A stretch of DNA of 20,000 nucleotides. It comes from an uncultured virus (IMG/VR IMGVR_UViG_3300005002_000003). Lineage: Duplodnaviria > Heunggongvirae > Uroviricota > Caudoviricetes. Shown piece after piece: positions 3,800 to 18,410 of the stretch. Position numbers and translations under genes: made by a program. Location of the stretch: IMG/VR virus record IMGVR_UViG_3300005002_000003; one strand, given 5' to 3'. The stretch's first letter is position 1, and each line of letters starts with the position of its first letter. Under the pieces are notes generated by a model. The model was not told the DNA's origin and did not search any database. It saw nothing but the letters and a program-made list of their open reading frames with translations.

Positions 3800-4110
3800 A
3801 AGCAATCCGTAAACTCCTATTGCGCTTGCTCCAGAAGGAGCAACGCTGGGTAAGCGGCATGATGGAAGGCTACAACACCGAGGAGCCCGCAGGAGAACCG
3901 TCGCTTACCATATCATCGCCCTTCTCGATCTCCTCTTGCTCCAACTGTCCCTTTCGTATCATAGACCCGGAACACGTCTTTTGTGGATTACCGGGTTCCC
4001 GTCGTGACAAGAATGTCACGAAGTTTTATGACAACGATACACTGCCTAAGTGGTGTCCTCTGCCAGAGTCTCTCGATCGTGATCTCGTAGTGCAGAGATA
4101 TAAATCATGA
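3796..4110 (+). CDS. Cys-rich phage hypothetical protein
   Basis: ATG 3796 with GGAAGGAG RBS and ATGA overlap. CSNCPF...FC...PKWCPL putative metal-binding motif. Confidence 0.65.
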   Translation: MKAIRKLLLRLLQKEQRWVSGMMEGYNTEEPAGEPSLTISSPFSISSCSNCPFRIIDPEHVFCGLPGSRRDKNVTKFYDNDTLPKWCPLPESLDRDLVVQRYKS

Positions 4111-4535
4111 AGCACTACCATTACACATTTGATGTGGACTTCAAGGCGGCAGGCGAGGACAACGACTTCAGCCATGCGCAGAAGCTATACGCTGTTTTGA
4201 TGGAGGCTTTCGAAATTCTGTTGGGTAGGATTCGATACCATCAGCCTTTTGCTTACCCGCTCTTTGCGAATATCGAAGTCTCGCCCCGTGTGATGACCTA
4301 TGTCAGAAAGCTGGCGTGCTACAAGAAAAGCGAACTCAGGTTGCCGCTTCCCGTGGTTGCGACAAATGTTATCGTTCTTCCTGAAGATTCGTCCAGTGAG
4401 ATTCATGGTTATTACTCCTTTGTTATGACAAAGCATCGCAGTTTGAATCGCGGTCTTGACGAGGGAGATAACGAGGCGGGATTTTCGATATATCTGGAAA
4501 ACTACGATACTGTCTATCCGGGAGAACCTCAATGA
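4107..4535 (+). CDS. hypothetical protein
   Basis: 142-aa ORF with ATGA overlap with the upstream gene. Confidence 0.65.
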   Translation: MKHYHYTFDVDFKAAGEDNDFSHAQKLYAVLMEAFEILLGRIRYHQPFAYPLFANIEVSPRVMTYVRKLACYKKSELRLPLPVVATNVIVLPEDSSSEIHGYYSFVMTKHRSLNRGLDEGDNEAGFSIYLENYDTVYPGEPQ

Positions 4536-4589
4536 GTGAAACCCATGACACGAACTGTGGGCCCCTCAGAGCACAGCAGGAGAAGAGTA

Positions 4590-5021
4590 ATGAAGCGTGA
4601 TTACAGTCTGTTACGAGCAGTGATCTATTTCGCAGAGCAGAAACTCAGGGAGACCTGGTGGCTCTGGCTCTATATCGGGATATTGATCCCCGTAGAATAC
4701 ATGGGGAGCGAGCTAAAGTGCCCCAATTGCGGAGACTCGGGTTGGCTGGAGTTTCTTCTCCTCAGAGTGCTCTTGCTACCAATCGTTGCCACCCTGATCT
4801 TCAGCATGTCGGTCCTTGCACTACTCGCCGTGCTCCTAGTGAAAGACTTCTTCCCTGGCTGGATCAGGGAGTTTCTTCTTTGGATAAAGAGGAACTGGGC
4901 GCAGGCAAAAGTCAGGGCGAAGTATAACTCGCCGGTAGAAGAATCCCAGTCCGTACCGGGCCCCGTAGTGAAGGTCAAGCGTGGGAGAGCGAGACGTTCC
5001 TCAGCAGGAGAGCCGAAATGA
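4590..5021 (+). CDS. membrane protein with two TM segments flanking a CPNC motif
   Basis: ATG 4590 follows AGGAG (alternative start GTG 4536). Two hydrophobic stretches. Confidence 0.65.
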   Translation: MKRDYSLLRAVIYFAEQKLRETWWLWLYIGILIPVEYMGSELKCPNCGDSGWLEFLLLRVLLLPIVATLIFSMSVLALLAVLLVKDFFPGWIREFLLWIKRNWAQAKVRAKYNSPVEESQSVPGPVVKVKRGRARRSSAGEPK

Positions 5022-5417
5022 AATCTTTCTCCCTGATTGTGTTCCTTGCGCTGTGCATAACCTGTCAAGAGGAGCCCGCAACGGCTTTGACTTGCAGGGA
5101 AACCGAGACAGCTGACAGCGTGATATCACGGCGCCAGTGGATTCTGGATTGTGTGAAGACTCAGACGTCATCACTGCAAACCTCAGCGGCTCAGCTGGAG
5201 CAGAAAGAAGACATCATTGATGAGTGCGCAGACCATTCCTTGAAGTTGCGCGTGACTACCTGTGAGCCTCAACTCGAAGTCTATGAATGGCGCAGGCTAC
5301 AGGGACTGCGCGGGCTTCAGCGAGAAATCCGTACAGGGGCAGGCCTGCGGCCGCGCGCGACTCTATTACGAGTCCACGGGAAGGCTTCCCCGTGGAAAGG
5401 AGTCGGCGAAGAAATGA
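5018..5417 (+). CDS. exported or lipoprotein-like Cys-rich protein, probably frameshifted near 5282
   Basis: AGGAG RBS and signal-like N-terminus MKSFSLIVFLALCITC. The +1 frame (MNGAGYRDCAGFSEKSVQGQAC...KK*) ends in an ATGA overlap at 5414-5417. Confidence 0.45.
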
Positions 5418-5815
5418 GCAAACCCGGAAAGCCCAGTCACATAGATAAGTTGCACGCATTGCAGGAGTCCGGCTTGTTGCAGGAACTCTGTGACTATGCG
5501 GACTTCGCCCCCCAGAAGCTGGTAGCCGCCTACCGGGCGGTATCGCAGAGTCAGTTGCCAGCGGAGGCCTTGTTGACATCGCTTGACGCACTGGACTCCG
5601 AATGCCAGCGGCTGGGCCTGGAGTTTGATCTCGGTCACACTATGTTTTGCGGCCAGCGGATGAGAGATTTCCACGTCAGGAAGTCTGACCAGACCGGCGA
5701 CCCCATCTGGTTGTCAGTGGAACAACGCAGTGAATTCCAGCACGGACTTGCGGGCCTGCTGATTGCCATGACGTGTGTGTTAACCTGGCGGGGGTCTAAG
5801 CCTGACTGGGAATGA
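5414..5815 (+). CDS. hypothetical protein (C-terminal half of ORF 5018..5815)
   Basis: ATG 5414 preceded by AAGGAG. MSKPGKPSH...DWE*. Confidence 0.55.
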   Translation: MSKPGKPSHIDKLHALQESGLLQELCDYADFAPQKLVAAYRAVSQSQLPAEALLTSLDALDSECQRLGLEFDLGHTMFCGQRMRDFHVRKSDQTGDPIWLSVEQRSEFQHGLAGLLIAMTCVLTWRGSKPDWE

Positions 5816-5836
5816 GGGCGCCTCCTACTCCTAATG

Positions 5837-5981
5837 ATCTGAAAACCTCCGCGCTATGGTGCGGAGCGCGAAATTCCACGCCGGGGTTTCTGCTGTCGTC
5901 GCCGGAGATTCTCCGGTCCCCTCGGGGTTACGACCCCGGGGATGTTGTCTCCGCCCGCTAGACATAGCGGGCATTTTTTTT
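5837..5981 (+). ncRNA. candidate structured small RNA
   Basis: 180-bp intergenic gap with a CTAAT motif at 5831, three GC-rich hairpins and a terminator. No convincing ORF. The start coordinate is approximate. Confidence 0.4.
5953..5981 (+). terminator. rho-independent terminator
   Basis: GCCCGCTA-GACA-TAGCGGGC followed by A and T8. Confidence 0.85.
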
Positions 5982-5985
5982 GCCC

Positions 5986-5991
5986 ACTAAA
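5986..5991 (+). promoter_or_regulatory. putative phage late promoter (-10-only, ACTAAA)
   Basis: ACTAAA begins 11 nt before ATG 5997. The same motif and spacing occur at 7831 and 9777. Confidence 0.6.
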
Positions 5992-5996
5992 GCTAC

Positions 5997-7490
5997 ATGC
6001 CATTCCAAGCCTCCCGCGATCCGGGGAAAAACATCTCTCATCTCAAACACAGCAAGCACGGGAAGAAAATGAAGCCCGAGCAACGCCTGGCGGCGGGCCT
6101 CACCATGGCGCGTAAAGCCGGCGCCGATATTCCGGAGAAAGTCGAGGAAAGTCGCACGCTGTTTATCGACGGCCGGCAGGCTTTCAATGCCAGGGGCCAG
6201 AAGATCGCAACTCTGGAGTCCCTTCAGCACGGCTTTGAGATCGCCGCCATGCGGGGCTTCTCGGAGGTTGTGGATGTCCGAAGCAAGGCGCGATACGTGG
6301 AAGCCAAAGGAAAATTACAGGAAGGCGGCGGTGCCGGCGTCCAGGTGTTTTTCAAAGCGCACCTCACGCCAGCTGGTAAACCCGACACTTACTCCATGCG
6401 AGGAGAAATCCAACTGATATCTTACAACGATTCAATCTCCTCAGAAGACGAGAGGAACGACGAGATTGACCTCGGCACCATCAAAGTCAAATTACATCCT
6501 GAAGTTGTGAAAGAACTGCGCCAGAAAATGCGTAGCGAACAGCAACTCACCACAAAGAAGTTCAGCCAGACTATTCGCATCACCCATGCTGAGTCGCATG
6601 GCTTCGTAGTGAGTGGCGGCTGGATTCGCAAGCCACTTCCCGACAGTGTCTCTACGCCCGGTGGAAGTACTTCTTCAGCATTTCTCTCCGTGGAAGTAAC
6701 CTACGGGCACGACATGATTGTTCAGGAAGAATCCAACTTGTGGACTTGGTATCCATCCGAAGACGTGAAGGGACTGTACGCAGTCCTCGATAGTTTTGAT
6801 GACGAAGAGGAACTTACTGAGAGCGTGCAGGACACCAAAGTAGAGGAAAGTCGCACACTGTTCATGGTCCAAAGCAAGGCGCGATACGTGGAGGCTCATG
6901 CAGATGTCCCTGCCTTACAGAAGCGCACAGCAGACGCGGTCCAGAAATTTGGAGACCTGGCGGCAACCGCTGAGAAACATCTGGCAGACGCCACCTCACA
7001 GCCCACTTATGTAAGTGAGCTGGAAACCGTTTATCAGGCAACTTCAGAACAGTTTCTGAAGGGCGTTACACTTATGGAGCAGGCCTCAAAAGGGCTCTAT
7101 CGATTTCTGTATTCCCCTGATGACGTGAGCGAAATCATGTCATCTCTCACCGAGAGCGCGCAGGACACCTTGAAGAAAGACGTCGTGGCGTACTTCACAG
7201 CGAAAATGCCAGAAGAAGTCCAGCAGGCCTGGGCAAACGCCAGCGCCAATCTCATGCACGGTCCCTCCGCCGGAGAGGGCACCTTCCAGAGCAACACGGC
7301 AATTGTCAAGGAATGGGCAGACGCCAATATCTTCGATGTCTATTACGACGAGCAAACCGGAGAAGTAATGACCGACGAGCCGCAAGGCTTCGAAGACGGC
7401 GATGAGTGGGTTGAGCCCGGAGAATACTGGCAGATTGACGGCTATGATGCCAAACGCTGGGTATTTGGCGAACTTGCGCGTTACGTATGA
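5997..7490 (+). CDS. putative internal head polyprotein with repeated E|S linkers
   Basis: 497 aa. Duplicated KVEESRTLF, SKARYVEA and LTES(V/A)QDT segments, and an acidic C-terminal module. Confidence 0.6.
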   Translation: MPFQASRDPGKNISHLKHSKHGKKMKPEQRLAAGLTMARKAGADIPEKVEESRTLFIDGRQAFNARGQKIATLESLQHGFEIAAMRGFSEVVDVRSKARYVEAKGKLQEGGGAGVQVFFKAHLTPAGKPDTYSMRGEIQLISYNDSISSEDERNDEIDLGTIKVKLHPEVVKELRQKMRSEQQLTTKKFSQTIRITHAESHGFVVSGGWIRKPLPDSVSTPGGSTSSAFLSVEVTYGHDMIVQEESNLWTWYPSEDVKGLYAVLDSFDDEEELTESVQDTKVEESRTLFMVQSKARYVEAHADVPALQKRTADAVQKFGDLAATAEKHLADATSQPTYVSELETVYQATSEQFLKGVTLMEQASKGLYRFLYSPDDVSEIMSSLTESAQDTLKKDVVAYFTAKMPEEVQQAWANASANLMHGPSAGEGTFQSNTAIVKEWADANIFDVYYDEQTGEVMTDEPQGFEDGDEWVEPGEYWQIDGYDAKRWVFGELARYV

Positions 7491-7798
7491 GAGAGACTAT
7501 GATCGACTCCAGATACGCCGCAGACATGCGTTTCCTTCGCGAGGGAGATACTGACCGCGAGATGCGCGCACTACGCGAAGGCGTAATGGATTACAAACAT
7601 ACGCCAACCAATCTTCAGAACTTGGCGTCCAAAAATCCACTAGCTTCGCCGCGCACATCAGGCGTCAGCGATGACGACTATCTGCGAAAGCACGGCGCCA
7701 GATTGCCGGCCCCACGCCAGGAAGACAATCTGCTCGCCCCGGCCAACAGGCTCTGCAACTCGCGATTAAGAAAGGCCTGGTGCAGGGACACTTTGTAA
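7487..7798 (+). CDS. small putative head protein (LREG twice), possible -1 frameshift product ending at 7809
   Basis: ATGA overlap, FLRE|G and ALRE|G motifs, CGA-AAG at 7685-7690. Confidence 0.55.
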   Translation: MRETMIDSRYAADMRFLREGDTDREMRALREGVMDYKHTPTNLQNLASKNPLASPRTSGVSDDDYLRKHGARLPAPRQEDNLLAPANRLCNSRLRKAWCRDTL

Positions 7799-7830
7799 AA
7801 AGGGCGTGACAAATCACGATGAGGGTTCGC

Positions 7831-7836
7831 ACTAAA
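7831..7836 (+). promoter_or_regulatory. putative phage late promoter (ACTAAA)
   Basis: ACTAAA begins 11 nt before ATG 7842, with no RBS in between. Confidence 0.6.
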
Positions 7837-7841
7837 CCTCT

Positions 7842-9443
7842 ATGAACTTCAGTCATCTGTCGTCCGAATTCCAACAGCCCCTTAAAGACGAACTCTGGGC
7901 ACTCCAGGAACGCAAGCTTATCGAAGGCCAACACAGTCACTACACTCTGGATGAACTCCGTGCCATGCCTACTCTCAGTCAAAGTCAGGCCGACAATCTG
8001 AAGTTTGATGATGGCAGGACTCGTGTGTGGCTGTCGCGCATGAAGAAAGCCGATGGCGCGCCTTACAACAACCAGGTTACGGTAGAGGTTCTACACAATG
8101 GCCGCTGGGAGACCAGCGAAGAATACCCGGCTGGACAGGCCCTGAACTGGGATCGGAAACGGAAGCGTCTGGATGCCAAATACGACGCAGAAGCACGGAG
8201 GCCCTCTGTTGGCGGCCATGCTCCGTATCCGCGAGGAAGTCGTGCCGCGAAGTGGATCGGAGAAGCACGCCGGAGCACAGACATTGGCGACGGATTCTAC
8301 ATCCACGACAGTGGATTCGATGTCAATGGCAACTGGCGCGTAACGATTTCCAAAGGCGCCAACCGCGCAGTGGGCATCCAGACCAACGGAAATGCAGATG
8401 CCGCACACCACAAGTCGATTCCGGAGATCGCCGCAGACCCCAGGGCCGTGCAGGAACTCAAGGACTTCTACATGAACTTCATCCACAAGAAGAACCGCAG
8501 TAGAGGTGGCGCGGCTCAGCGCACACTTCCAGCAGGTAGTGATGACTGGAGCGGATTCCAGGAAGCCGATGACAAGAAAGTCACTGCGCTTCAGAACCGG
8601 ATCTCTGGTCTCCTTGGCCCCCAGAACCTCAAGGCAATTGTGGAGCCCAACACCGATAAGCAAGCCGTTGTGAAGCCCGCAGAAGCACTGGAGCAAGCGG
8701 AAGAGAAGACCTGGGCGGACAAAGTCAAATCTGTTCTCACCACAGCGAAGCTGAAGTTCCAACCACAGGGAACCGCTTACTTCATCGTAGACTACCCCGA
8801 GGATCTGAAGGAGAACCGCCGGGTGTCACAAGCCGATCTCGAAGACATGATCGCGAGGTTCAATGCGGAGGGCTCCGACTTCCGTCTCGCTGGCTCCTAC
8901 GGATATCTCGACCTCTGGACAAAGACTCCAGACGGTAAGGATGTTCGCCTGGCGTCGGGAAGCCGCAAGGACATCTACGACGCTCTTGTGAAGAACCGCT
9001 TCAAGTTCCGGGAAGCGTCTCCAGTGGATACGCTCTATATCGACCTGGATAACGCAATCGACTTTCTGGAGCGTACGTTTTTCAACGAGGACGACGTCAG
9101 CTTTGAGTTAAAGAGTGCAGGCCATAACAAGGAACTCGGTCTGCCATTCGCGATCATGAGCATTCAGATTCAGCCTTCAGGGCTAGGGCCTAGATTTGCT
9201 CCAGTCGAACTGGACGTCAAAATTCAGAAGCTACCAGGAGGCGAGATGCGATACAGTCTGGAAGCGTTACCCAGCACTCGCTTACCGCAATGGACAGCAA
9301 TCATTCAAAAGAATGAAGGTGCAGTCAATAATCTTGAAGATCGCCTGGTTATGGCCGTGAAGAAAGTCCGTTCTGTCTTAAACAAACTGCTCAGTAAGAC
9401 AGAGTCCAGCCGTCACGCCAAGTTCCGCGAGGTCCGAAAGTAA
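7842..9443 (+). CDS. putative internal head polyprotein
   Basis: 533 aa. Apparently unrelated modules separated by LIE|G, IGE|A, FQE|A, LKE|N, FRE|A and FRE|V. Confidence 0.6.
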   Translation: MNFSHLSSEFQQPLKDELWALQERKLIEGQHSHYTLDELRAMPTLSQSQADNLKFDDGRTRVWLSRMKKADGAPYNNQVTVEVLHNGRWETSEEYPAGQALNWDRKRKRLDAKYDAEARRPSVGGHAPYPRGSRAAKWIGEARRSTDIGDGFYIHDSGFDVNGNWRVTISKGANRAVGIQTNGNADAAHHKSIPEIAADPRAVQELKDFYMNFIHKKNRSRGGAAQRTLPAGSDDWSGFQEADDKKVTALQNRISGLLGPQNLKAIVEPNTDKQAVVKPAEALEQAEEKTWADKVKSVLTTAKLKFQPQGTAYFIVDYPEDLKENRRVSQADLEDMIARFNAEGSDFRLAGSYGYLDLWTKTPDGKDVRLASGSRKDIYDALVKNRFKFREASPVDTLYIDLDNAIDFLERTFFNEDDVSFELKSAGHNKELGLPFAIMSIQIQPSGLGPRFAPVELDVKIQKLPGGEMRYSLEALPSTRLPQWTAIIQKNEGAVNNLEDRLVMAVKKVRSVLNKLLSKTESSRHAKFREVRK

Positions 9444-9751
9444 TGAAAGCCCTGCTTCTTACCCTGGCGCTGTTGTGGCCTATGGCCCTCAGCGCTCAGG
9501 AGGAACCCCAGGACAATCACGACTGGTTTGTGTTCAACGGAAAGACAGGAGAATGTATCCCCGCAATGGCGGGCACGAAGAAGCTGTCTCCGGCTCACGC
9601 GCTCAATGGCTTTCGGTGTGACGTCAAGGCCTGGGACTGGAAAGCCGGCTGGGTGGTGTTGCAATGCAATGACGCCAAGATCCAGGGCCTGTTGTTTTTC
9701 TCGCTTGACATAAATACGTGTCAGGCTATAAGGGAATCTCTGCTGTTCTGA
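9443..9751 (+). CDS. exported protein with a Sec signal peptide
   Basis: MKALLLTLALLWPMALSA|QEE signal, four Cys, TAATG overlap. Confidence 0.7.
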   Translation: MKALLLTLALLWPMALSAQEEPQDNHDWFVFNGKTGECIPAMAGTKKLSPAHALNGFRCDVKAWDWKAGWVVLQCNDAKIQGLLFFSLDINTCQAIRESLLF

Positions 9752-9776
9752 CTACGATCTCCAGCGGCAGAAGGAG

Positions 9777-9782
9777 ACTAAA
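9777..9782 (+). promoter_or_regulatory. putative phage late promoter (ACTAAA)
   Basis: ACTAAA begins 11 nt before ATG 9788. An AAGGAG also lies just upstream. Confidence 0.5.
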
Positions 9783-9787
9783 CCAGC

Positions 9788-11983
9788 ATGACTCCCTCTA
9801 CTCGTGACCCCCGTGATCCTCAATACCAGAGATACCTTCGTGCTGTAGCCGGCGCTCAGCGCGTGCTACAAGAACGCCAGGTGGTGGAAAATCTTGAGTC
9901 AGGTCAAACCGTTCAACTCTACCTCTGCTACATCGGCGACGGCTACCTGTATGGCGTCAGCGACAACGACGCCGCAAGATCCCCCAGCTACTGGGCCGGG
10001 GTAGATGAAGGCATGGACATCGTGCAGGCCACGTTCCCTGCGGCCATAGCACAAGACCTTCTGAGCTTCACGAACTCCGAGGCCTCCTCCAGCGTAGGCG
10101 ACGGCTACGAGGCCGCTGATCTCGCCGCAAAGCATATGCAAAACGACACCGTCATCTACTCCAGCAAGGGCGAAGCAGAAGACGGCATGATGGAATCCGC
10201 TAGAGTGGCACAGTCTCCGGCCCCGCGATGGAACGAGTCACTGACGCATGTTCAGCAACAACTGAGTTCAATTGACCCCGCTGAGTTCGAAGCCCGCATG
10301 AACGCGGCAAAAAACTTCAAGCAACTCTCCGCAGTTCTGGATGACTACGGCATTGATATCAACCTCTCCAAACAGGGTGATACTTACCAGTGGCAGATTG
10401 CAGGCGCTCCGAAGATGTCAGCAAATGGACGCGGGTTCCAGAAAGCTCGGACCTCCATCACTTCGCAATTGAAGCGGGACATGGTTCCCTCCGGCGCGCG
10501 GGTTAACGAAGACGGAGACAGACTCTCTGGTGATGATCCATCCTCGCTTCAGGAATCCGTAGAAGGATCATCCTTACTGATCAAAGAAGTAGCACGCGAT
10601 CTTATTTCTATGTCGGTAGCGGATGCGCTGGAACGCGAAAACCATGACGCGCTATCCGATTTTGTCAGGTCTCAGGAAGACATTACGGAAACTGTGCCTA
10701 TAGGGTTGCAAGAACACGGGATTGACATAGATAGTTACATTGCGCCAGTCGAAGAACTCGTGAGACAAATTGCAGAACAAATTGGCTCCGAAAACCTGGG
10801 CAAACTCCAGGACGTAGATGATCGAGCACTGTGGTTGGTAATAATGGGTCCGATCCTCAATCATGGCGTAGGCCCTACAGATGATCCCGCTCTGGCAACG
10901 GTTTACAAGGAGGTGGGTTCTCCTCGCCCACAAGTGAAAGGACTGGACGTAACTCTCTTCAATGTTGCTGAAGACATCATCTCTCGCATTTCTAATGGCA
11001 CCTCCATGCTTCAGGAATCCACAGAAGGCAAAGTAGCTCGTAGCTATGTCATCCACGATCACGGAATTGATCACGCGCAATATTTCCGGGGCCACGGTCT
11101 CGCGCATTCCGATATGGAGGACACCGCAACTGGAGCCGGAGACACATTTGAAGACGCTCTGGAAGACGCACTTGATCAACTGGCTTCAGATGATTGGGAT
11201 TTAAGTCAGATCGAGTCCGCAATCGCAACAGAAGCCGCAAGCGCTGGCGCATCTTCATCCGCAGTGGAGGAGTTGAAAACACAAATTCGCGACGAAATCC
11301 TGGCGGAAAATCCAGAGTTTATAGATCCAGAAACCGACGATGTCTATGAAGACAAAGCAGATGAGTTAGAGGGGATGATCGAAGACGTTCTGCAAGACGA
11401 AGGCGGCGATCTCTACTACTACGTGTCTGTAGACGTAAGCACTCAGCCCGCAGGAGGAGGTATCCGGGAATCCACAGAAGGCAACAACCGGTGGGAAGTC
11501 ATCTGGCTTGATGTCTGGGGAAATGCAGAAGAAGGTTTTGAAGTCAATGACGCGCATCATACCGGCAGGTTCGTAGAACTTCCTCCAGAAGTGGCGATGG
11601 GCATTACAGAAGAAGAAGAGCAACAGCTCGTTGACATCCTGATTGCCGCAGGTGAGCTGAGGCGTGACGTCAAAGCCCATCAGATCGAAGTCGAAGACCT
11701 GGGGGAGAACGACATCGGCATCAATGACGCCGAAACCAGAGAACCCTTGTTTCAGCTCCAGCGCGTGGTTGAGACTCAATCAGCCGAGAAGGCAGGCGAG
11801 AAAGTCCAGGAGAAACTCGCACGTCAGGTAATGGAAATCCGCATGCTTGCCGGCGGGAAGTTCGGCATCTTCGACAAGTCCATGAGAGGTGCGGAACCCC
11901 TGGCGAAAGCCAACTCCTGGCATGAAGCCAGAATGAAAATCAACTCCATGATGAGAGACGCGCAGAAGCCGCTGAAAGATTGA
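9788..11983 (+). CDS. acidic putative internal head polyprotein with repeat-bounded modules
   Basis: 731 aa. Linkers LQE|SVEG, LQE|STEG and IRE|STEG, plus MME|S and WNE|S. Confidence 0.65.
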   Translation: MTPSTRDPRDPQYQRYLRAVAGAQRVLQERQVVENLESGQTVQLYLCYIGDGYLYGVSDNDAARSPSYWAGVDEGMDIVQATFPAAIAQDLLSFTNSEASSSVGDGYEAADLAAKHMQNDTVIYSSKGEAEDGMMESARVAQSPAPRWNESLTHVQQQLSSIDPAEFEARMNAAKNFKQLSAVLDDYGIDINLSKQGDTYQWQIAGAPKMSANGRGFQKARTSITSQLKRDMVPSGARVNEDGDRLSGDDPSSLQESVEGSSLLIKEVARDLISMSVADALERENHDALSDFVRSQEDITETVPIGLQEHGIDIDSYIAPVEELVRQIAEQIGSENLGKLQDVDDRALWLVIMGPILNHGVGPTDDPALATVYKEVGSPRPQVKGLDVTLFNVAEDIISRISNGTSMLQESTEGKVARSYVIHDHGIDHAQYFRGHGLAHSDMEDTATGAGDTFEDALEDALDQLASDDWDLSQIESAIATEAASAGASSSAVEELKTQIRDEILAENPEFIDPETDDVYEDKADELEGMIEDVLQDEGGDLYYYVSVDVSTQPAGGGIRESTEGNNRWEVIWLDVWGNAEEGFEVNDAHHTGRFVELPPEVAMGITEEEEQQLVDILIAAGELRRDVKAHQIEVEDLGENDIGINDAETREPLFQLQRVVETQSAEKAGEKVQEKLARQVMEIRMLAGGKFGIFDKSMRGAEPLAKANSWHEARMKINSMMRDAQKPLKD
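10546..11484 (+). repeat. three dispersed direct repeats encoding (L/I)(Q/R)ES(V/T)EG
   Basis: GCTTCAGGAATCCGTAGAAGG (10546-10566), GCTTCAGGAATCCACAGAAGGCAA (11008-11031) and GGAATCCACAGAAGGCAA (11467-11484, an 18-bp exact match to the second copy). Confidence 0.85.
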
Positions 11984-12363
11984 TGCGCATCCTTTTTCTT
12001 GACGATGATGACAACCGGCACCGGGCTTTCAGCAGATGGCTGACGCCCGGACACGACGTTGTCTTTGTTCACACAGCGGCTGAAGCCATACAGGCACTGA
12101 CGTCCCAGAGTTTCGACATCGCGTTTCTCGATCACGATCTCGGTGGTGAAGTCATGGTGACCAGGGTGGAGAACACCGGTTACGAAGTCACGTTGTGGAT
12201 GGAGGCGCACGAACTGTTGTGCCCCGCTGTTGTGGTGTTGCACTCCATGAACCCCTCGGGCCGCCTGCGGCAACAACAAGCACTGCGCGGCCTCCGAAAC
12301 GTCACCGCACATGCCTTGAGCTTCTCATCTCTGATGACGACTCCCTGCACGCTTCAGGCCTGA
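11983..12363 (+). CDS. stand-alone receiver domain, cyclic-phosphate-processing (cREC-like) type
   Basis: Motifs MRILFLDDD, FDIAFLDHDLG, TGYEV and LHSMNPSGR. TGATG overlap places the start at 11983. Confidence 0.8.
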   Translation: MRILFLDDDDNRHRAFSRWLTPGHDVVFVHTAAEAIQALTSQSFDIAFLDHDLGGEVMVTRVENTGYEVTLWMEAHELLCPAVVVLHSMNPSGRLRQQQALRGLRNVTAHALSFSSLMTTPCTLQA

Positions 12364-12393: not shown

Positions 12394-14256
12394 ATGACCA
12401 CCACATATCTGGAGTCCAGAGCGGCTAAACTCGGTTTACGCGTGCTCGTAGAATCATCTCAGGTGAGCCTTGGCGACACCGGAGTAACCATTGAACGCTG
12501 TGAGCCCGGAGTCCTGACTGAAGGCACGCAGGGCAAATACCAGGCACTCGCAATCGTACGCAACGTGCCGTTCACGAGGTTCACACGCAACCGCAACGGC
12601 CGCACGTATCTCAGAGAGCTATGGCAACGCGTGCTGGAGACCATCGAAGGCAGTCTGTCGTTCTGCGACCATCCACTGGAGAACACCAACTACCACCCGC
12701 ACAGCGGCGACGGCAGTATGGAGCGCATCTGCGGCGTCTTCCACAACGCCAGGCTGGGAGAGGAATGTGGATACGTGGACTGGTATCTCGTGGGCCCCAT
12801 CGGCAAGCTCATCCTCGAAACCCTGCAAGCCGGCGCCAAAGGCGTGGGGCTGTCAACAGTGGGATTCGGCCAGATCAAGGAGAACTACTACGACGCCAAC
12901 GGCTTCATCCTTGAGGGAGTTGTTGATCCCGAGACCTTCATCTATGAGCGCACGGACTGCGTGTTTCAGCCCAGTCAGGGAGTATTTGCAACCATCGCAA
13001 ATCTCGGTGAAAACACGGGATTTCGGGAAAATCAAAATACTAATGACAGAAGTACTTCTAAATCAGAAGCGAGGAACAGCAATAATATGGATCAAGTAAA
13101 ACTGCTTGAAGGCAATGCAAAGTACCAGACATCCGAGCGCGTGAAGCTCGCAAACAAAGCTCTGAAGTCCGGCGATCTGCAAGAACTCACAGAGCGTTTC
13201 GAAGACCTCAAAGGCTTTGCGGTCGTAGTCGAAAGCATGCCGGCTGAACGCCAGAAGATCGCAGAAGCCCGCGAGCAACTGGAAGCCGCAATCAGCGAAG
13301 CCGCTCTCAAGGGTCAGGACGCTCAGGTAGCGCTCCAGGGCACGGCAAAAAAACTCGCTCTTGCCGAGCAGATGCTGGTGGAAGCCCGCAAGGCCAACAA
13401 GCAGATGGTGGCGGTAATCGAACGCCTGGGCGGAACTCCAGAGACTCTGGACAAGCTCAAGGTAGTTGACGACATGGCGGAGTCCATCGAGACCTTCAAG
13501 GCCAATGAAGCCAAATACAAGCTCAACGAAAAAATCAAAGACGCTGATCTTCAGATTTACGAGAAGGAAATCAACAAAATCTCCAAAGACAACAAGGTCT
13601 ACGAAGGCGAAAACCGCGAACTCGTGGCCGACAACGAATTCCTGGTGAAACAACTTGAGGCTCGCGACGGCGACATCAAGAAATCCCTCAAAGACCGCAT
13701 GGTTATGGAAGGCGATGTGTTGAAGCTCGTGGCCAGCGTGACCAACCTCACGGAAGACCTCGCAGTCGCAGAGGAGAGCATTGCTATCCTTCGCAACAGA
13801 CTGCGCGAAGCCGGCCTGGAAGACGATCCGTATGCGGAAGTCATCGGGGCTCCGCGTGCTGTTAACCCCAGGTTCCCGCAGGAAAATTCCGAAGGCAAGG
13901 GACAGGAGACCGCAAGTCCCGCCATGCGCCGTCAGGCAAGTTCTCGGGGCTACACAATGGGTGAGCGCGCAAACTCTGCTTCTCGCAAAGCGCCTGCTGA
14001 GGGAATCAAGGAGTCCGTGGTGCGCAACGAGATCCGGAGCTTCTACGAGCAGAAAGCCGCAGAATACCCCGCACTCCAGCGCCATCGCGATGCCGTGCTG
14101 AACAGCAAGACGTTGTTCGAAGCCGTGCGCGTAGTGGAAGCCATGACAAGGAATGGTGAAGACCCCGTGATTCGCGCCAGCGAAGACAGTGGAACCAGCT
14201 TCACGGAGTCCAGCCGGGCGGCGAATCGACCATCCTGGCTCAGAGACCGACTGTAA
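12394..14256 (+). CDS. prohead protease (T4 gp21-like) fused to a scaffold domain
   Basis: NRNGRTY, DHP and GLSTVGFG resemble the gp21-family NRNGRxY, xxxHP and GVSSRG motifs. Long coiled-coil C-terminal half, directly upstream of the major capsid gene, with ACTAAC at 12381. Confidence 0.85.
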   Translation: MTTTYLESRAAKLGLRVLVESSQVSLGDTGVTIERCEPGVLTEGTQGKYQALAIVRNVPFTRFTRNRNGRTYLRELWQRVLETIEGSLSFCDHPLENTNYHPHSGDGSMERICGVFHNARLGEECGYVDWYLVGPIGKLILETLQAGAKGVGLSTVGFGQIKENYYDANGFILEGVVDPETFIYERTDCVFQPSQGVFATIANLGENTGFRENQNTNDRSTSKSEARNSNNMDQVKLLEGNAKYQTSERVKLANKALKSGDLQELTERFEDLKGFAVVVESMPAERQKIAEAREQLEAAISEAALKGQDAQVALQGTAKKLALAEQMLVEARKANKQMVAVIERLGGTPETLDKLKVVDDMAESIETFKANEAKYKLNEKIKDADLQIYEKEINKISKDNKVYEGENRELVADNEFLVKQLEARDGDIKKSLKDRMVMEGDVLKLVASVTNLTEDLAVAEESIAILRNRLREAGLEDDPYAEVIGAPRAVNPRFPQENSEGKGQETASPAMRRQASSRGYTMGERANSASRKAPAEGIKESVVRNEIRSFYEQKAAEYPALQRHRDAVLNSKTLFEAVRVVEAMTRNGEDPVIRASEDSGTSFTESSRAANRPSWLRDRL

Positions 14257-14438: not shown

Positions 14439-15995
14439 ATGCAACGACTCAGAAATGCGCCTGTTGCCGGTCGTCTCCCAGCACCCGTTGCCTACAAGCA
14501 CGGACGCCGACTTCCTGCACAGCAGTCACTGACTGAAAATCGTCCTGCCGCGTCTCGCGAGCAGTACATCGAAAAACGCATTGTAGCTCTGGACCGTCTT
14601 GTAGAAGAATGGAACCGCAGACCAGAAGGACAATATCTGGAAAGCGTTTACGCCAAGTCTCCTACCATTGCACGGAACACAGCACTGCTCCTGGAAAACC
14701 AGCGCAGACACATGCTTCACATCCGGGAATCCGGAACCCAAATCTCCTCGGCTTTCGGCACGTCTCCAGAGAACGTGTTGCGCATCGTCCGCATCGGCGT
14801 GGCGAACAGCAACCGTGCTGACGTCTTCACAGAATGGGCACTTACGTCTGTAAACGACGCGCTCTTCTATGTAGACGGAGTCTACGGAACATCTATTCGC
14901 GGCGCTACAGCTGGCAATCGTATCTACGATTACGGCGCAGTAACTGCGGATTACGGCGGAGCTTTCCAGACCATCAACGGCACACCTTCCACAGGTGACG
15001 GCGCGACTACAACGTTCACAGGAACATTCTCTCCTACAAATATCAAGCCACACAGCGTGCAAATCGTTGTAGGTAATGCGTTTGTGGGCACAGACGACGG
15101 TGCGGGAAACCTCATCGGAACTCCGAACGGTAGCGGCGGCACAACAGCCACTGTGTCTTCGGGAACCGTGAGCTACACAGCGGGAACATTCTCTGTGACT
15201 CTGACTACGGCTCCAGCACTTGGTGTTGAAATCCGTGCGCAGGCAGTATGGGATGCAGAAAACAGCGCGAACTACTCGTCTTACAACGACATTCAGCTGA
15301 AAGTCTACAAGCGTCCATTCCACCTCATGATGCATCCGATTCGCATCGCTTACTCCAAGATGTCCGAACTGACGTTCGAGACCACTGGACTCGGCGACTT
15401 CGACGAGCAGATCATCAAGCGCGCAGGCGACGAGATGGCAAAACGCCGTGACTTCAAAGCCTTCCAGCTCGCAAGACGCGTAGCGGGACAGAGCACTCCA
15501 TATGTGTTCGACGCAGATCCGGCAAGTGGAAACGACGACAACGACTTTAACCACGCTCAGCGTATCCTGACAACCATCGATAACATCGGTGGCGATATCT
15601 TCGATGCACTGCAACGTGGTGAGATCACGAAAATCGTGGGCAACCCGAAAGCCGTGAACTACTTCCGTAAGAACCTCCAGTGGAAATCCGCTTCTTCTCA
15701 ACAGAAGGTTGGCGCTTCCTATCTCGCGGGTAAACTTGCGGACATCGACGTCTACGTGACTCCAAGTCACTCCACAACAGTAGCGGGAACTTCATCTTCT
15801 GGAGAAGCGATTTGTGTATACAAAAACGCGCAAGAAGAAGGCGAACCGTCTCTGGCGTTCGGCACACTGACAGAACTCAGTGCTGGTCTGGACTACCCAC
15901 AGATGTATCGTGAAGTTGTCCTCGCGCATGTTGAGGGCGAAAACGTGATTCAGCCGGGCTTCATCAAGCTCCTGCAAATCAACAACATCAAGTAA
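14439..15995 (+). CDS. major capsid protein (T4 gp23-like, HK97 fold) with an inserted beta-rich domain
   Basis: gp23-like N-terminus (LVEEW...TALLLENQ...IRE|S), ALFYVD and YLAGKL...VYVTP. Located after the protease/scaffold and flanked by strong terminators. Confidence 0.9.
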   Translation: MQRLRNAPVAGRLPAPVAYKHGRRLPAQQSLTENRPAASREQYIEKRIVALDRLVEEWNRRPEGQYLESVYAKSPTIARNTALLLENQRRHMLHIRESGTQISSAFGTSPENVLRIVRIGVANSNRADVFTEWALTSVNDALFYVDGVYGTSIRGATAGNRIYDYGAVTADYGGAFQTINGTPSTGDGATTTFTGTFSPTNIKPHSVQIVVGNAFVGTDDGAGNLIGTPNGSGGTTATVSSGTVSYTAGTFSVTLTTAPALGVEIRAQAVWDAENSANYSSYNDIQLKVYKRPFHLMMHPIRIAYSKMSELTFETTGLGDFDEQIIKRAGDEMAKRRDFKAFQLARRVAGQSTPYVFDADPASGNDDNDFNHAQRILTTIDNIGGDIFDALQRGEITKIVGNPKAVNYFRKNLQWKSASSQQKVGASYLAGKLADIDVYVTPSHSTTVAGTSSSGEAICVYKNAQEEGEPSLAFGTLTELSAGLDYPQMYREVVLAHVEGENVIQPGFIKLLQINNIK

Positions 15996-16135: not shown

Positions 16136-16510
16136 ATGAGACTGGTAGAACTACAACGACTTTATGCGAGTGGCGGATCATTGTATGAATCTTTTACTTA
16201 TGAATCGTTCTGGCTTTCACCAGAAGGTGAAGTGTCAAAATGGGAGAATCATCGTCTTGGTGCTTTTACAATTCTTAATCGAGATAAAAATGATAATCTT
16301 CATGATTCAATAAGAGCAGATGCGAGAGCCATTGGCTGGCGTGATTTCATCATTACCAATGATAAAAAACTGTGGTTGCGAATGAGATGGGATCACTTGA
16401 ATAAGGTGCAGAAAAAAGCTATTGAAACAATAGCACGAAAACATAAACTTGAGATCAAAGAAGGTACCGAAATGGACGAACTGAACTCTGGAAATCATAC
16501 TGTAAACTGA
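16136..16510 (+). CDS. passenger protein 1: shared leader plus a WLSPEG...H...GW domain of unknown function
   Basis: 124 aa, AT-rich relative to the flanks, preceded by ACTAAAGATACA and AAGGA. Confidence 0.8.
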   Translation: MRLVELQRLYASGGSLYESFTYESFWLSPEGEVSKWENHRLGAFTILNRDKNDNLHDSIRADARAIGWRDFIITNDKKLWLRMRWDHLNKVQKKAIETIARKHKLEIKEGTEMDELNSGNHTVN

Positions 16511-16520
16511 CCAAACCAGT

Positions 16521-16673
16521 TCACGCCGCAGTAGCCAGCAAAGTTCGCTTCATAAAATCGTGAAAGATGTTCTCGTTCTTCCGATTGCTGAACCTCCAGG
16601 AAAATTCGTCGATGTATGCTTGCAGGTACTTCGGGCTGATGTGGTGATACGAGCCGATAATCCCACGCTTCAT
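16521..16673 (-). pseudogene. IS1595-family transposase C-terminal remnant
   Basis: MKRGIIGSYHHISPKYLQAYIDEFSWRFSNRK matches the family C-terminal KRxxxGxYHxxSxKxLxxYxDEFxxRxN motif. It lies 4 bp from the TIR, so the catalytic core is deleted. Confidence 0.9.
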
Positions 16674-16710
16674 GTTTCGGGATAATTCCGTTTTTTTTTT
16701 GCATTTTGTG

Positions 16711-16738
16711 TTGACAACTTTGTGCCGGGGGATATGGT
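16711..16738 (+). promoter_or_regulatory. sigma70-type (early) promoter, probably leaderless
   Basis: TTGACA, 16-bp spacer, TATGGT, then 6 nt to ATG 16745. Same architecture as the promoter at 3036. Confidence 0.7.
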
Positions 16739-16744
16739 GTCTCC

Positions 16745-17359
16745 ATGGAAACAACAGCGACAAAAACAATTGATCAGCGCATTGCGGAAGAACGTCAGGG
16801 AGGCATGACCTATCTCCAGCTCGCGAAAGACGTCATGGAGAACTACCCGGAATACAGTTTCTGCATGATCTGCACAGAGTTCTCCTACGAAGGCGAAGGC
16901 AGATTTAAGTTCCACGATCAGGAGACTCTGGGGGCGGAATTCACCTGTTATGCCTGCGGTAAAGACGCCGCTGATGAGCCCGGAGGCTCGCTCTACCACT
17001 CACATCCGCTTTCGGATTGCAAGGGGAGCGACGGTCAGCCCTGGGCCGACGTTGCGCTGTGCCTGTGCTCCTCCTGCGCAGACGCCACAAAGGACATGAC
17101 CACAGTAGATCAGTTTATGGACTACAAAGCGTCTGTGGCCCAGCATGTTGAGGAAACCGATGAGCGGACGGGCTTGAAGCTCTGGACGGTGACCTACGCG
17201 AGCTTCGCCAAGGGCCTCGAACTCTACCACCTCATGATCCAGAACGGTAAGTGGCGCGGCGATGCTCCCGCGAGCTTCTACGACGCCGGAGACTGGGATG
17301 CCGTTATGGCGGATGTCGCACTGCAACTCTCGATTTTCGGGGAGGTCATCTACGGCTGA
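16745..17359 (+). CDS. phage hypothetical protein with a zinc-finger-like insert and a C-terminal DAxxADxxLQxxxFGEVIYG motif
   Basis: 204 aa with CYAC...CSSC. Has its own promoter and terminator. Confidence 0.75.
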   Translation: METTATKTIDQRIAEERQGGMTYLQLAKDVMENYPEYSFCMICTEFSYEGEGRFKFHDQETLGAEFTCYACGKDAADEPGGSLYHSHPLSDCKGSDGQPWADVALCLCSSCADATKDMTTVDQFMDYKASVAQHVEETDERTGLKLWTVTYASFAKGLELYHLMIQNGKWRGDAPASFYDAGDWDAVMADVALQLSIFGEVIYG

Positions 17360-17411: not shown

Positions 17412-18148
17412 CGGAATTATCCCTCAGTGTACACAGGCTTATGACGCATTAGAATCGCCTCAGATCACTAAAGATACAGGTATGCGTCTGGTAGAATTGC
17501 AAAGGCTTTATGAGAGCGGCGGATCGCTGTATGAAGCAAATTTTTCTCGAATTGAAAAACACGATGATTTTGGTAGGTACTACATCATTGACGGTGCAAT
17601 CGATCCAAATGGAAACTGGAAACGATTAGCCAGCATTCCAGATGATAATTATGTAGCTCTATACCATGCGACAAGCAGAGAGAACGCTCAGGCAATTTTG
17701 GATTCTGGCTGGAATAGAGATGTTGCAACAGAAAAATCTGTGTGGAAGAATCCACTTGGGCAGTTTATTTTTCTTGGTTCTAAGAATGGTCTTGGAACAT
17801 ACTTAGCTCACGCTGGGCGTGATCCTGTATTTCTTGTTTTCAAAGCAAGAAAAAGCGATCTACAACCAGACGATGGCCCAGATTGGGAGCATTACAGGAA
17901 GAATGATAGGAACAGATTTGGCGGACGAAGCGATTTGCCTGTGCATCCAAAAGTAGAAGATACTTACGGTCGCATAAATCAAGTTCGTGTCCATTCTTCA
18001 AAAGCAATACCCATCGGAATTGATGAATTTAGATAGTTTCTTACGCTGTTTTAACAAGCACCGTCCGCTTCATGTAATCGTGGAAAATATTCTCGTTTTT
18101 TCGATTTGAAAATCTCCAGGAGAATTCGTCGATGCACGATTGAAGATA
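17412..18148. mobile_element. second IS1595-family derivative with a passenger gene, one end missing (cassette 2)
   Basis: Same left end CGGAATTATCCC with conserved subterminal blocks (CAGxGTACA, TTATGxCG, ATCGCCT, ACTAAAGATACA). Convergent transposase tail YLQSCIDEFSWRFSNRKNENIFHDYMKR at 18041-18148. No right TIR found. Confidence 0.8.
17482..18036 (+). CDS. passenger protein 2: shared leader plus an ADP-ribosyltransferase-like domain
   Basis: LYHATSRENAQAILDSGW, FIFLG, VFLVF and terminal QVRV...IP follow the strand order of ART-superfamily domains. AT-rich. Confidence 0.65.
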   Translation: MRLVELQRLYESGGSLYEANFSRIEKHDDFGRYYIIDGAIDPNGNWKRLASIPDDNYVALYHATSRENAQAILDSGWNRDVATEKSVWKNPLGQFIFLGSKNGLGTYLAHAGRDPVFLVFKARKSDLQPDDGPDWEHYRKNDRNRFGGRSDLPVHPKVEDTYGRINQVRVHSSKAIPIGIDEFR

Positions 18149-18410
18149 GCCTTCCTGACAGGCGGCCTTACTTGTGCCCCAGAGAACCCGAAAAGTGAAG
18201 TCCTGTCCGTCGCGCCATGTGCTTTTTCGCGAGATGTAGCTGGTGAGCTTCCCAGCCTGGAGCTTTCCTTCGCGGGTAAGTCGAAAGACTTTCTGCTCTC
18301 TGGCCGTGAGCCGGGATTTGTAGTGCAGATCCACGGATGCGCGGAGGGTCTCTGTCATGCGTGATGTGGAAGCCCCGGTAGGTTCCGAAGCTGATTGCGT
18401 CTTGATTCAT
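18041..18410 (-). pseudogene. chimeric or disrupted ORF: resident gene fused to the transposase tail
   Basis: A minus-strand TTGACA-17-TGTAGT (18446-18418) precedes ATG 18410. A second frame from ATG 18358 runs in-frame into the IS1595 tail. Confidence 0.45.

Follow-up and report, generated by a model that had tools for sequence, protein, structure and literature searches.

A gene in the head region of a T4-related phage is arranged as an in-frame array of exchangeable modules whose repeat linkers are probably also protease sites

The DNA analysed here, referred to as the window, is a 20,000-nucleotide (nt) stretch of an uncultured virus (IMG/VR IMGVR_UViG_3300005002_000003; Caudoviricetes); it is the last 20 kb of one 73,074-nt contig and includes a T4-type head region. 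Within it, gene 9788 (9788..11983, plus strand) encodes a modular precursor protein of 731 amino acids (aa), identified from the list of open reading frames (ORFs) and assigned to no Pfam or PHROG family. We propose, with a probability of about 65%, that this polyprotein is an in-frame array of independent small proteins in which a repeated linker both swaps modules and is likely the cut site of a gp21-like protease that releases the modules as head cargo. Gain or loss of a module at a linker repeat is directly supported by near-identical strain sequences. Cutting of the linkers and a head-cargo role of the modules are likely, as judged from sequence.

The precursor begins with a leader (residues 1-37, 9788..9898) that is nearly identical in a relative, P0029, ends in candidate x-x-Glu sites and is predicted to be a targeting propeptide. 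It is followed by module N1 (9899..10195), which extends to MME136|S and is common to P0029, and by module N2 (residues 137-256, 10196..10555), where P0029 has other sequence. Next come M1 (154 aa, 10556..11017), M2 (151 aa, 11018..11470) and M3 (~104 aa, 11471..11782), and then a degenerate site, VQE|K (MAE|A and LKE|S in relatives), with a basic C-terminal module common to P0028 and P0029 (11804..11983); all of these parts lie on the plus strand. The linkers preceding M1, M2 and M3 are R1, LQE|SVEG (residues 254-260, 10541..10566), R2, LQE|STEG (408-414, 11003..11031), and R3, IRE|STEG (559-565, 11462..11484); further candidate sites are VVE34/NLE37, MME136 and VQE675. At the DNA level, R1 and R2 share 13 exact nt (10546-10558 = 11008-11020) and 22/26 nt over 10541-10566 versus 11003-11028, R2 and R3 share 18 exact nt (11014-11031 = 11467-11484), and the longest run common to R1 and R3 is just 7 nt. 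When synonymous codons were shuffled with the protein fixed, a run of ≥13 at R1/R2 arose in 8/5000 trials and a run of ≥18 at R2/R3 likewise in 8/5000, at positions picked after they had been seen; a repeat of ≥18 anywhere in the gene arose in 1/500. With codon order shuffled, the longest repeat over 500 trials was 15. Since such runs were rarely reached in the synonymous shuffles, the DNA likeness of the linkers exceeds what the peptide requires.

An earlier note, made from the sequence alone, had described this ORF with its three linkers and nucleotide repeats of up to 18 bp, and recomputed coordinates agreed. It had also described acidic, mutually unrelated modules of about 150 aa bracketed by the repeats. 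Net charges are indeed -17 (M1), -32 (M2) and -18 (M3), and the modules of gene 9788 show no similarity to one another or to the rest of the genome. The length fits M1 and M2, but three repeats bracket these two modules only, and M3 is shorter and closes at a linker that is no DNA repeat. The stretch from 10560 to 11460, which had looked AT-rich, is so by measurement: G+C content (GC) is 0.48 in M1 and 0.51 in M2 versus 0.55-0.58 in the flanking parts of the gene. Third-position GC is 0.45 and 0.47, respectively, with a genome median of 0.62; values ≤0.48 occur in 5 of 58 ORFs of ≥150 codons.

Near-identical strains were compared in seven different runs among 21 listed, all as contigs; runs with this DNA were labelled activated sludge or sludge. 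Contigs from two of the seven runs (X1 and X2, from one study) joined position 10545 to 11008, skipping 462 nt, with 13 nt that fit either side and with 0 other differences over 1063 and 855 nt. The joint, which lies in the 13-nt core of R1, removes exactly M1 and keeps the reading frame and one LQE|STEG site; it is a hybrid of the R1 left flank and the R2 right flank. The M1-bearing form was found in X15, from another study, in which a 270-nt contig spans R1 into M1 with 0 differences. These joints bear out the earlier suggestion of in-frame cassettes that are gained or lost at the linker, and the M1 joint is most simply a deletion. An assembly built on 31-letter words should not be misled by a repeat of only 13 nt. 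Backward joints (module circles) were absent among the joints listed in the contigs of the seven runs, which drop rare forms. An X5 contig starting exactly at 11008 hinted at a branch at R2 and was discounted, X5 having no listed upstream piece; 37-nt matches at 10615-10652 and 11664-11700, loose on both sides, came from other organisms and were ignored.

A second modular gene, 5997 (5997..7490, plus strand), varies at its linkers as well. Its repeated linker, LTE|SVQDT / LTE|SAQDT (6813-6836, 7146-7169), brackets a 333-nt module that is skipped in X4 and X5, from two further studies; one joint falls within the 10-nt identity and the other one base beyond it. In X1 and X2, different sequence follows the second repeated linker at 6892. 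The linker region of gene 5997 therefore shows three states: present, skipped and replaced. Gene 5997 has more repeated linkers (KVEESRTLF at residues 48/281 and SKARYVEA at 96/293), and X5 has an in-frame 27-nt deletion at 6519. A third modular gene, 7842 (7842..9443, plus strand), ends in a module behind FRE|A; at 9179-9317, within this last module, X1 and X2 have in-frame indels of 6, 3 and 27 nt.

Orthologues collinear over their full length would, according to the earlier note, have spoken against the array; P0028 and P0029, compared at the protein level, are not collinear with the polyprotein and proved to be mosaics. Residues 1-143 (49%) and 668-731 (73%) of the polyprotein, i.e., the leader, N1 and the C-terminal module, have counterparts in P0029 (537 aa), which is without M1 and M2, has a short M3-like stretch at another position, and ends, behind LTE|A, in the final module of gene 7842. 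P0028 (771 aa) carries M2 behind IME|G, the last module of gene 5997 behind LKE|G and the C-terminal module behind LKE|S, and another of its modules matches stand-alone genes in three M2/M3 loci. Between them, the two relatives combine, in other orders, modules that the window has in three adjacent genes; no module loss was seen among the seven members, full length or truncated, of the P0028 cluster. M2 also occurs within unrelated long proteins, namely P0055 (directly behind MKE|S), P0133, P0092 and P0041, and in viral locus L042 it lies in a 2222-aa head-cluster protein (3901-10569), three genes past a terminase and a T4-like portal. Besides M2, the 2222-aa protein includes at least one further module that occurs by itself elsewhere, and its N-terminus, which is basic, is shared with P0133. 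Considering the replaced state in gene 5997 together with these mosaic relatives, modules appear also to arrive at linkers.

The earlier note had also proposed a search of each module for stand-alone homologues. These were found for M2 and M3 and not for M1. A phmmer search of 1.84 billion representatives with the polyprotein gave 590 matches, of which the best 150 were used; by blastp, 136 of the 149 non-self matches among these mapped to M2 and 10 to M3, and 105 and 9, respectively, were ≤200 aa long. In homologues of ≤160 aa, the median implied N-terminus was residue 412 for M2 (n=90; linker Ser411) and 564 for M3 (n=9; Ser562). Where alignments reached the C-terminus, its implied median position was 556.5 for M2 (n=14) and 663 for M3 (n=9). 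In viral contigs, the module lay within an ORF of ≤219 aa in 29/31 M2 loci (32 fetched, 31 with a profile match) and 28/28 M3 loci, mostly among other small genes. Judged by homology, M2 and M3 each correspond to a complete gene that exists separately elsewhere (~100-150 aa and ~90-110 aa, respectively), with ends that match the linkers. One M3 homologue, P59_016 (68.8 bits), is located in the terminal repeat of Bacillus phage P59; the matching terminal-repeat region of phages related to P59 holds early takeover genes.

M2 and M3 were each predicted by AlphaFold2, alone, with a predicted local distance difference test (pLDDT) score of 92, and no known family or fold was found for any module by Pfam, profile and fold searches, the last covering M2 and M3. 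Pfam gave no family for the whole polyprotein at E 0.01 and none convincing for three of its other parts, tblastn of the whole polyprotein found no match in cultured phages, and profile searches of Protein Data Bank (PDB) sequences returned nothing below E 0.09. No homologue of M1 turned up in 99 candidates (84-270 aa) or in the top 150 of the 590 phmmer matches, and Atlas gave it no usable match. For M2, there was no Atlas match, none with one homologue in cultured phages and none by Foldseek versus PDB and BFVD at E 0.001, and the best VIA fold match (Z 5.1 over 45 residues of a helical hairpin) was not meaningful. For M3, Foldseek versus PDB gave no match, and neither did a search of plasmids with one homologue. 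This lack of fold matches does not establish that M2 and M3 have new folds.

A protease suited to the linkers is encoded nearby. In gene 12394 (12394..14256, plus strand), a T4 gp21-like prohead protease domain is fused to an extended scaffold-like region, and the encoded protein has 11 hydrophobic-x-Glu|Ser/Ala motifs in all; the same protease-scaffold fusion occurs in relatives at 24-40% capsid identity. An 18-sequence profile of its N-terminal domain matched T4 gp21 (5jbl, E 2.5e-4), and 3 of the 18 family members matched PF03420, weakly. H93, S154 and D188 were invariant in 18/18 rows, and we take them to be the catalytic triad from the alignment to 5jbl and from what is known of gp21. The major capsid protein (14439..15995, plus strand) is Gp23-like by homologue families and alignment, with the Gp23 family PF07068 found in 6 of 26 homologues. 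The earlier note had placed a maturation site at its IRE|S, which is present at residues 95-98 (14721-14732), and E97 was invariant in the 20 of these 26 homologues that aligned. T4 gp21 is described as cutting after L/I-x-E, stripping the leaders of internal proteins and fragmenting core proteins (PMC9026906). Cutting of the linkers by the head protease fits both the intact gp21-like protease and this published rule, and is likely on that basis. The hydrophobic-x-Glu|Ser/Ala motif occurred 26 times versus 10.6 expected in seven head-region ORFs and 51 times versus 52.5 in the other 94; for the polyprotein alone, the stricter [LIM]xES occurred 4 times versus 0.87 expected.

Capsid relatives were collected by alignment scans (31 viral and 5 metagenome loci, 24-41% capsid identity). 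The polyprotein, P0028 and P0029 had no match among the 31 viral loci, and scanning viral contigs with the capsid protein or the polyprotein singly gave no close relative with flanking DNA. In the 31 loci, the motif fell in residues 4-16 of 28/329 short ORFs versus 11.7 expected, six of them in L015 and four in L010, resembling separate T4-style cargo genes; the chains seem to replace such separate short cargo genes in this phage. Small-gene runs, many of whose members have the motif at residue 7-8, lie upstream of the protease at L015:47-6806 and L010:966-7583. A basic 315-aa ORF at L005:17309-18256 contains seven regular (I/M/L)-x-Glu|Ser/Gly motifs, mostly 17 residues apart.

Gene 9788 is preceded, by 5 nt, by ACTAAA (9777..9782, plus strand), likely a late promoter element common to the protease, capsid and neighbouring cargo genes. 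Of the 23 ACTAA[ACT] words in the genome, 14 precede a start by 4-12 nt. In the window it was found at 5986, 7831, 9777, 12381, 14326, 16118 and 17467, i.e., 4-12 nt before the starts of 5997, 7842, 9788, 12394, 16136 and 17482 and 107 nt before the capsid gene. Since it is common to the polyprotein and head genes, joint late expression is suggested, and ACTAA[ACT] is likely this phage's late promoter, differing from the T4 word. A T4-type late promoter was also considered at 9710; with ATAAATA present at just two places in the genome and preceding no other head gene, ACTAA was preferred. A consensus scan listed no promoter or terminator at the linker repeats.

Taken as a mechanism, the strain variants differ by one exact module, with the joint in frame inside the repeat, and homology indicates that modules stand alone elsewhere and recur in other orders and genes. 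The precursor would be expressed late with the head genes and targeted by its leader to the prohead core, where the protease would cut behind the Glu of every linker. Least certain is the last step, in which the freed modules might be retained in the head, reach the host along with the DNA and there counter defences or take part in takeover. Since the crossover falls inside the sequence that encodes the cut site, any exchange would keep the frame and one cut site per joint. Residues 1-35, nearly identical in P0029, may serve as a longer leader, by analogy with SPN3US, for which a targeting role of long propeptides has been proposed (PMC5694885).

Several points weigh against this proposal. We infer cutting, packaging and injection from sequence. 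Both M1-less runs are from one study, at a depth of 4.3, X15 may be the source of the window's own sequence, and loss of M2 between the longer, 18-nt repeats was seen in 0/7 runs (among joints listed, with patchy coverage). The seven ORFs with excess motifs were picked post hoc, and the protease-scaffold protein accounts for 11 of their 26 motifs; the polyprotein, taken by itself, shows no excess of the loose motif (4 versus 3.1 expected). A T4-type leader of 10-20 residues ending in L/I-x-E is absent, the first candidate site being at residue 29-37. The modules are acidic, whereas T4 internal proteins are described as basic, and ArdA adjoins a stand-alone M2 gene in just 2 of 59 loci (L043 and L044). 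Finally, a sigma-70-like promoter (TTGACA-16-TATAAG, 9705-9732) lies 83 nt upstream of the gene and is overlapped by a TGACA-N8-TGTCA palindrome; this possible second, regulated promoter makes early expression of the polyprotein possible.

The same promoter would suit an uncut, multidomain protein of the polyvalent type, possibly early and cytoplasmic, in which the Glu motif is merely the read-out of a DNA repeat. The absence of loose-motif enrichment in the polyprotein accords with this, and N4 virion RNA polymerase, ArdC and TraC1 are described as being transferred uncut (PMC5512222). Yet genes 5997 and 7842, and presumably P0028 and P0029, have different linker DNA, all four obey the same peptide rule as the capsid site, and the ACTAA motif is held in common with the protease and capsid genes, so that we regard an uncut protein as improbable. 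Nor do we consider it probable that the pieces of a packaged and cut precursor simply serve as acidic filler of the core or scaffold and then exit the head, as with T4 gp67/gp68, having no role in the next host. The polyprotein is strongly acidic and its gene adjoins that of the protease-scaffold protein, and T4 core proteins are described as being cut to fragments that exit the head (PMC9026906). A filler would not need whole foreign genes, however; M2 and M3 retain the whole length of their stand-alone counterparts together with the conserved motifs, and have well-folded predictions, and the cut sites lie between modules rather than throughout.

As to the repeats, they could be relics of past duplications that act as deletion hot spots only, with modules arriving by illegitimate recombination and no two-way cassette. 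This is a serious possibility, though an unlikely one. The hybrid joint at R1/R2 is explicable by simple deletion, and 13 nt is short for homologous integration. Deletion by itself does not readily accommodate the three states in gene 5997, the different modules that relatives carry behind equivalent sites, or the foreign-looking codon use in M1 and M2. As to function, the earlier note had considered the acidic modules to be DNA mimics or anti-defence proteins, for which gene neighbourhoods provide circumstantial support, the case for mimicry itself being that of charge. Mimics like Ocr or ArdA would agree with net charges of -17 to -32 and with the ArdA neighbours in L043 and L044, but conservation in M2 falls mostly on Gly, aromatic and Ala residues, Asp+Glu make up only 11-16% of several M2 and M3 homologues that stand alone, and Pfam gave no ArdA or Ocr match for the polyprotein; we regard mimicry as quite improbable. 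The modules would most likely be counter-defence or takeover proteins, at about even odds, by analogy with T4 Ip1-3, each of which is reported to block one GmrSD variant (PMC12373910, PMC3012670), and from their stand-alone neighbourhoods.

In T4, the internal proteins IPI, IPII, IPIII and Alt are described as carrying a capsid targeting sequence and being processed by gp21 (PMC3012670, PMC9026906, PMC12373910). The present system resembles these accounts in its T4-type head module with a gp21-type protease and gp23-type capsid, its cut-after-Glu motif and its small, variable accessory proteins predicted to be head-borne. In the same descriptions, T4 has one small basic protein per gene with a leader of 10-20 residues, whereas the polyprotein has 731 aa in six parts, is acidic, has one longer leader, and carries intermodule sites that double as DNA repeats. 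Polyvalent proteins, as presented by Iyer et al. (2017, PMC5512222), are likewise mosaic multidomain phage proteins, predicted to be packaged and to have their domains freed by proteolysis, and the polyprotein similarly joins several unrelated domains that are mosaic among relatives. It differs from those presented there in having none of the catalytic or LPD domains that mark them in Pfam searches, no embedded peptidase, which in them is often a metallopeptidase, and DNA repeats at the domain joints; processing would be by a separate head protease. In the PeSL cassettes of RB49 and phi1, repeats between small genes are described as mediating insertion, deletion and replacement (Arbiol et al. 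2010, PMC2839356). Exchange between short repeats, with joints inside or one base past them, is alike in both, but the PeSL repeats are described as intergenic promoter-terminator units and the repeat here is in frame and encodes a likely protease site. The inner head proteins of SPN3US and phiKZ are also comparable, with longer propeptides and several Glu sites; the processing described for them removes propeptides, and arrays of swappable modules do not figure in that description (PMC5694885).

The polyprotein would work like a chain of T4 internal proteins in which shuffling of the PeSL kind takes place within the reading frame. In the literature, most subscription journals being outside the scope, no account was found of a linker serving as recombination repeat and cut site at once. 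Such an arrangement would explain how the protein cargo of a phage head can change while no promoter, ribosome site or targeting leader has to be added, and the cut-site linker would let one gene load several proteins into the capsid. The linker also gives exact borders of candidate injected effectors, unmatched in family and fold, that could be screened against defence systems. For two adjacent genes, the gain-or-loss step itself was observed by comparing sequences that otherwise agree, as opposed to being deduced from distant relatives. A general T4-related system, in which the cut site is the recombination site, a linker-bearing small early or anti-defence gene becomes injected cargo and the array varies between co-existing strains, is a tentative extension, to which we give somewhat less than even odds.

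Other features of the window concern the remainder of the head region. Gene 18466 is a likely terminase, homologous to the gene that precedes the T4-like portal in L042, and a stand-alone cREC receiver-domain gene (11980-12363; PF20274, E 7e-17) lies between the polyprotein and protease genes. Two unrelated ORFs, 16136-16510 and 17482-18036, are built as T4-style single cargo genes: their 19-residue leaders are 89% identical and close with LYE|S or LYE|A, and the DNA upstream of the two is similar; paralogues with identical N-termini described in SPN3US and phiKZ (PMC5694885) resemble them. Each is followed by one of two similar remnants of an IS1595-family transposase C-terminus (16521-16769 and 18041-18358, minus strand), which share 77% DNA identity over 92 nt, the first matching PF12762 at E 1e-9. 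ORF 17482, without a Pfam match, contains a YHAT motif reminiscent of ADP-ribosyltransferases.

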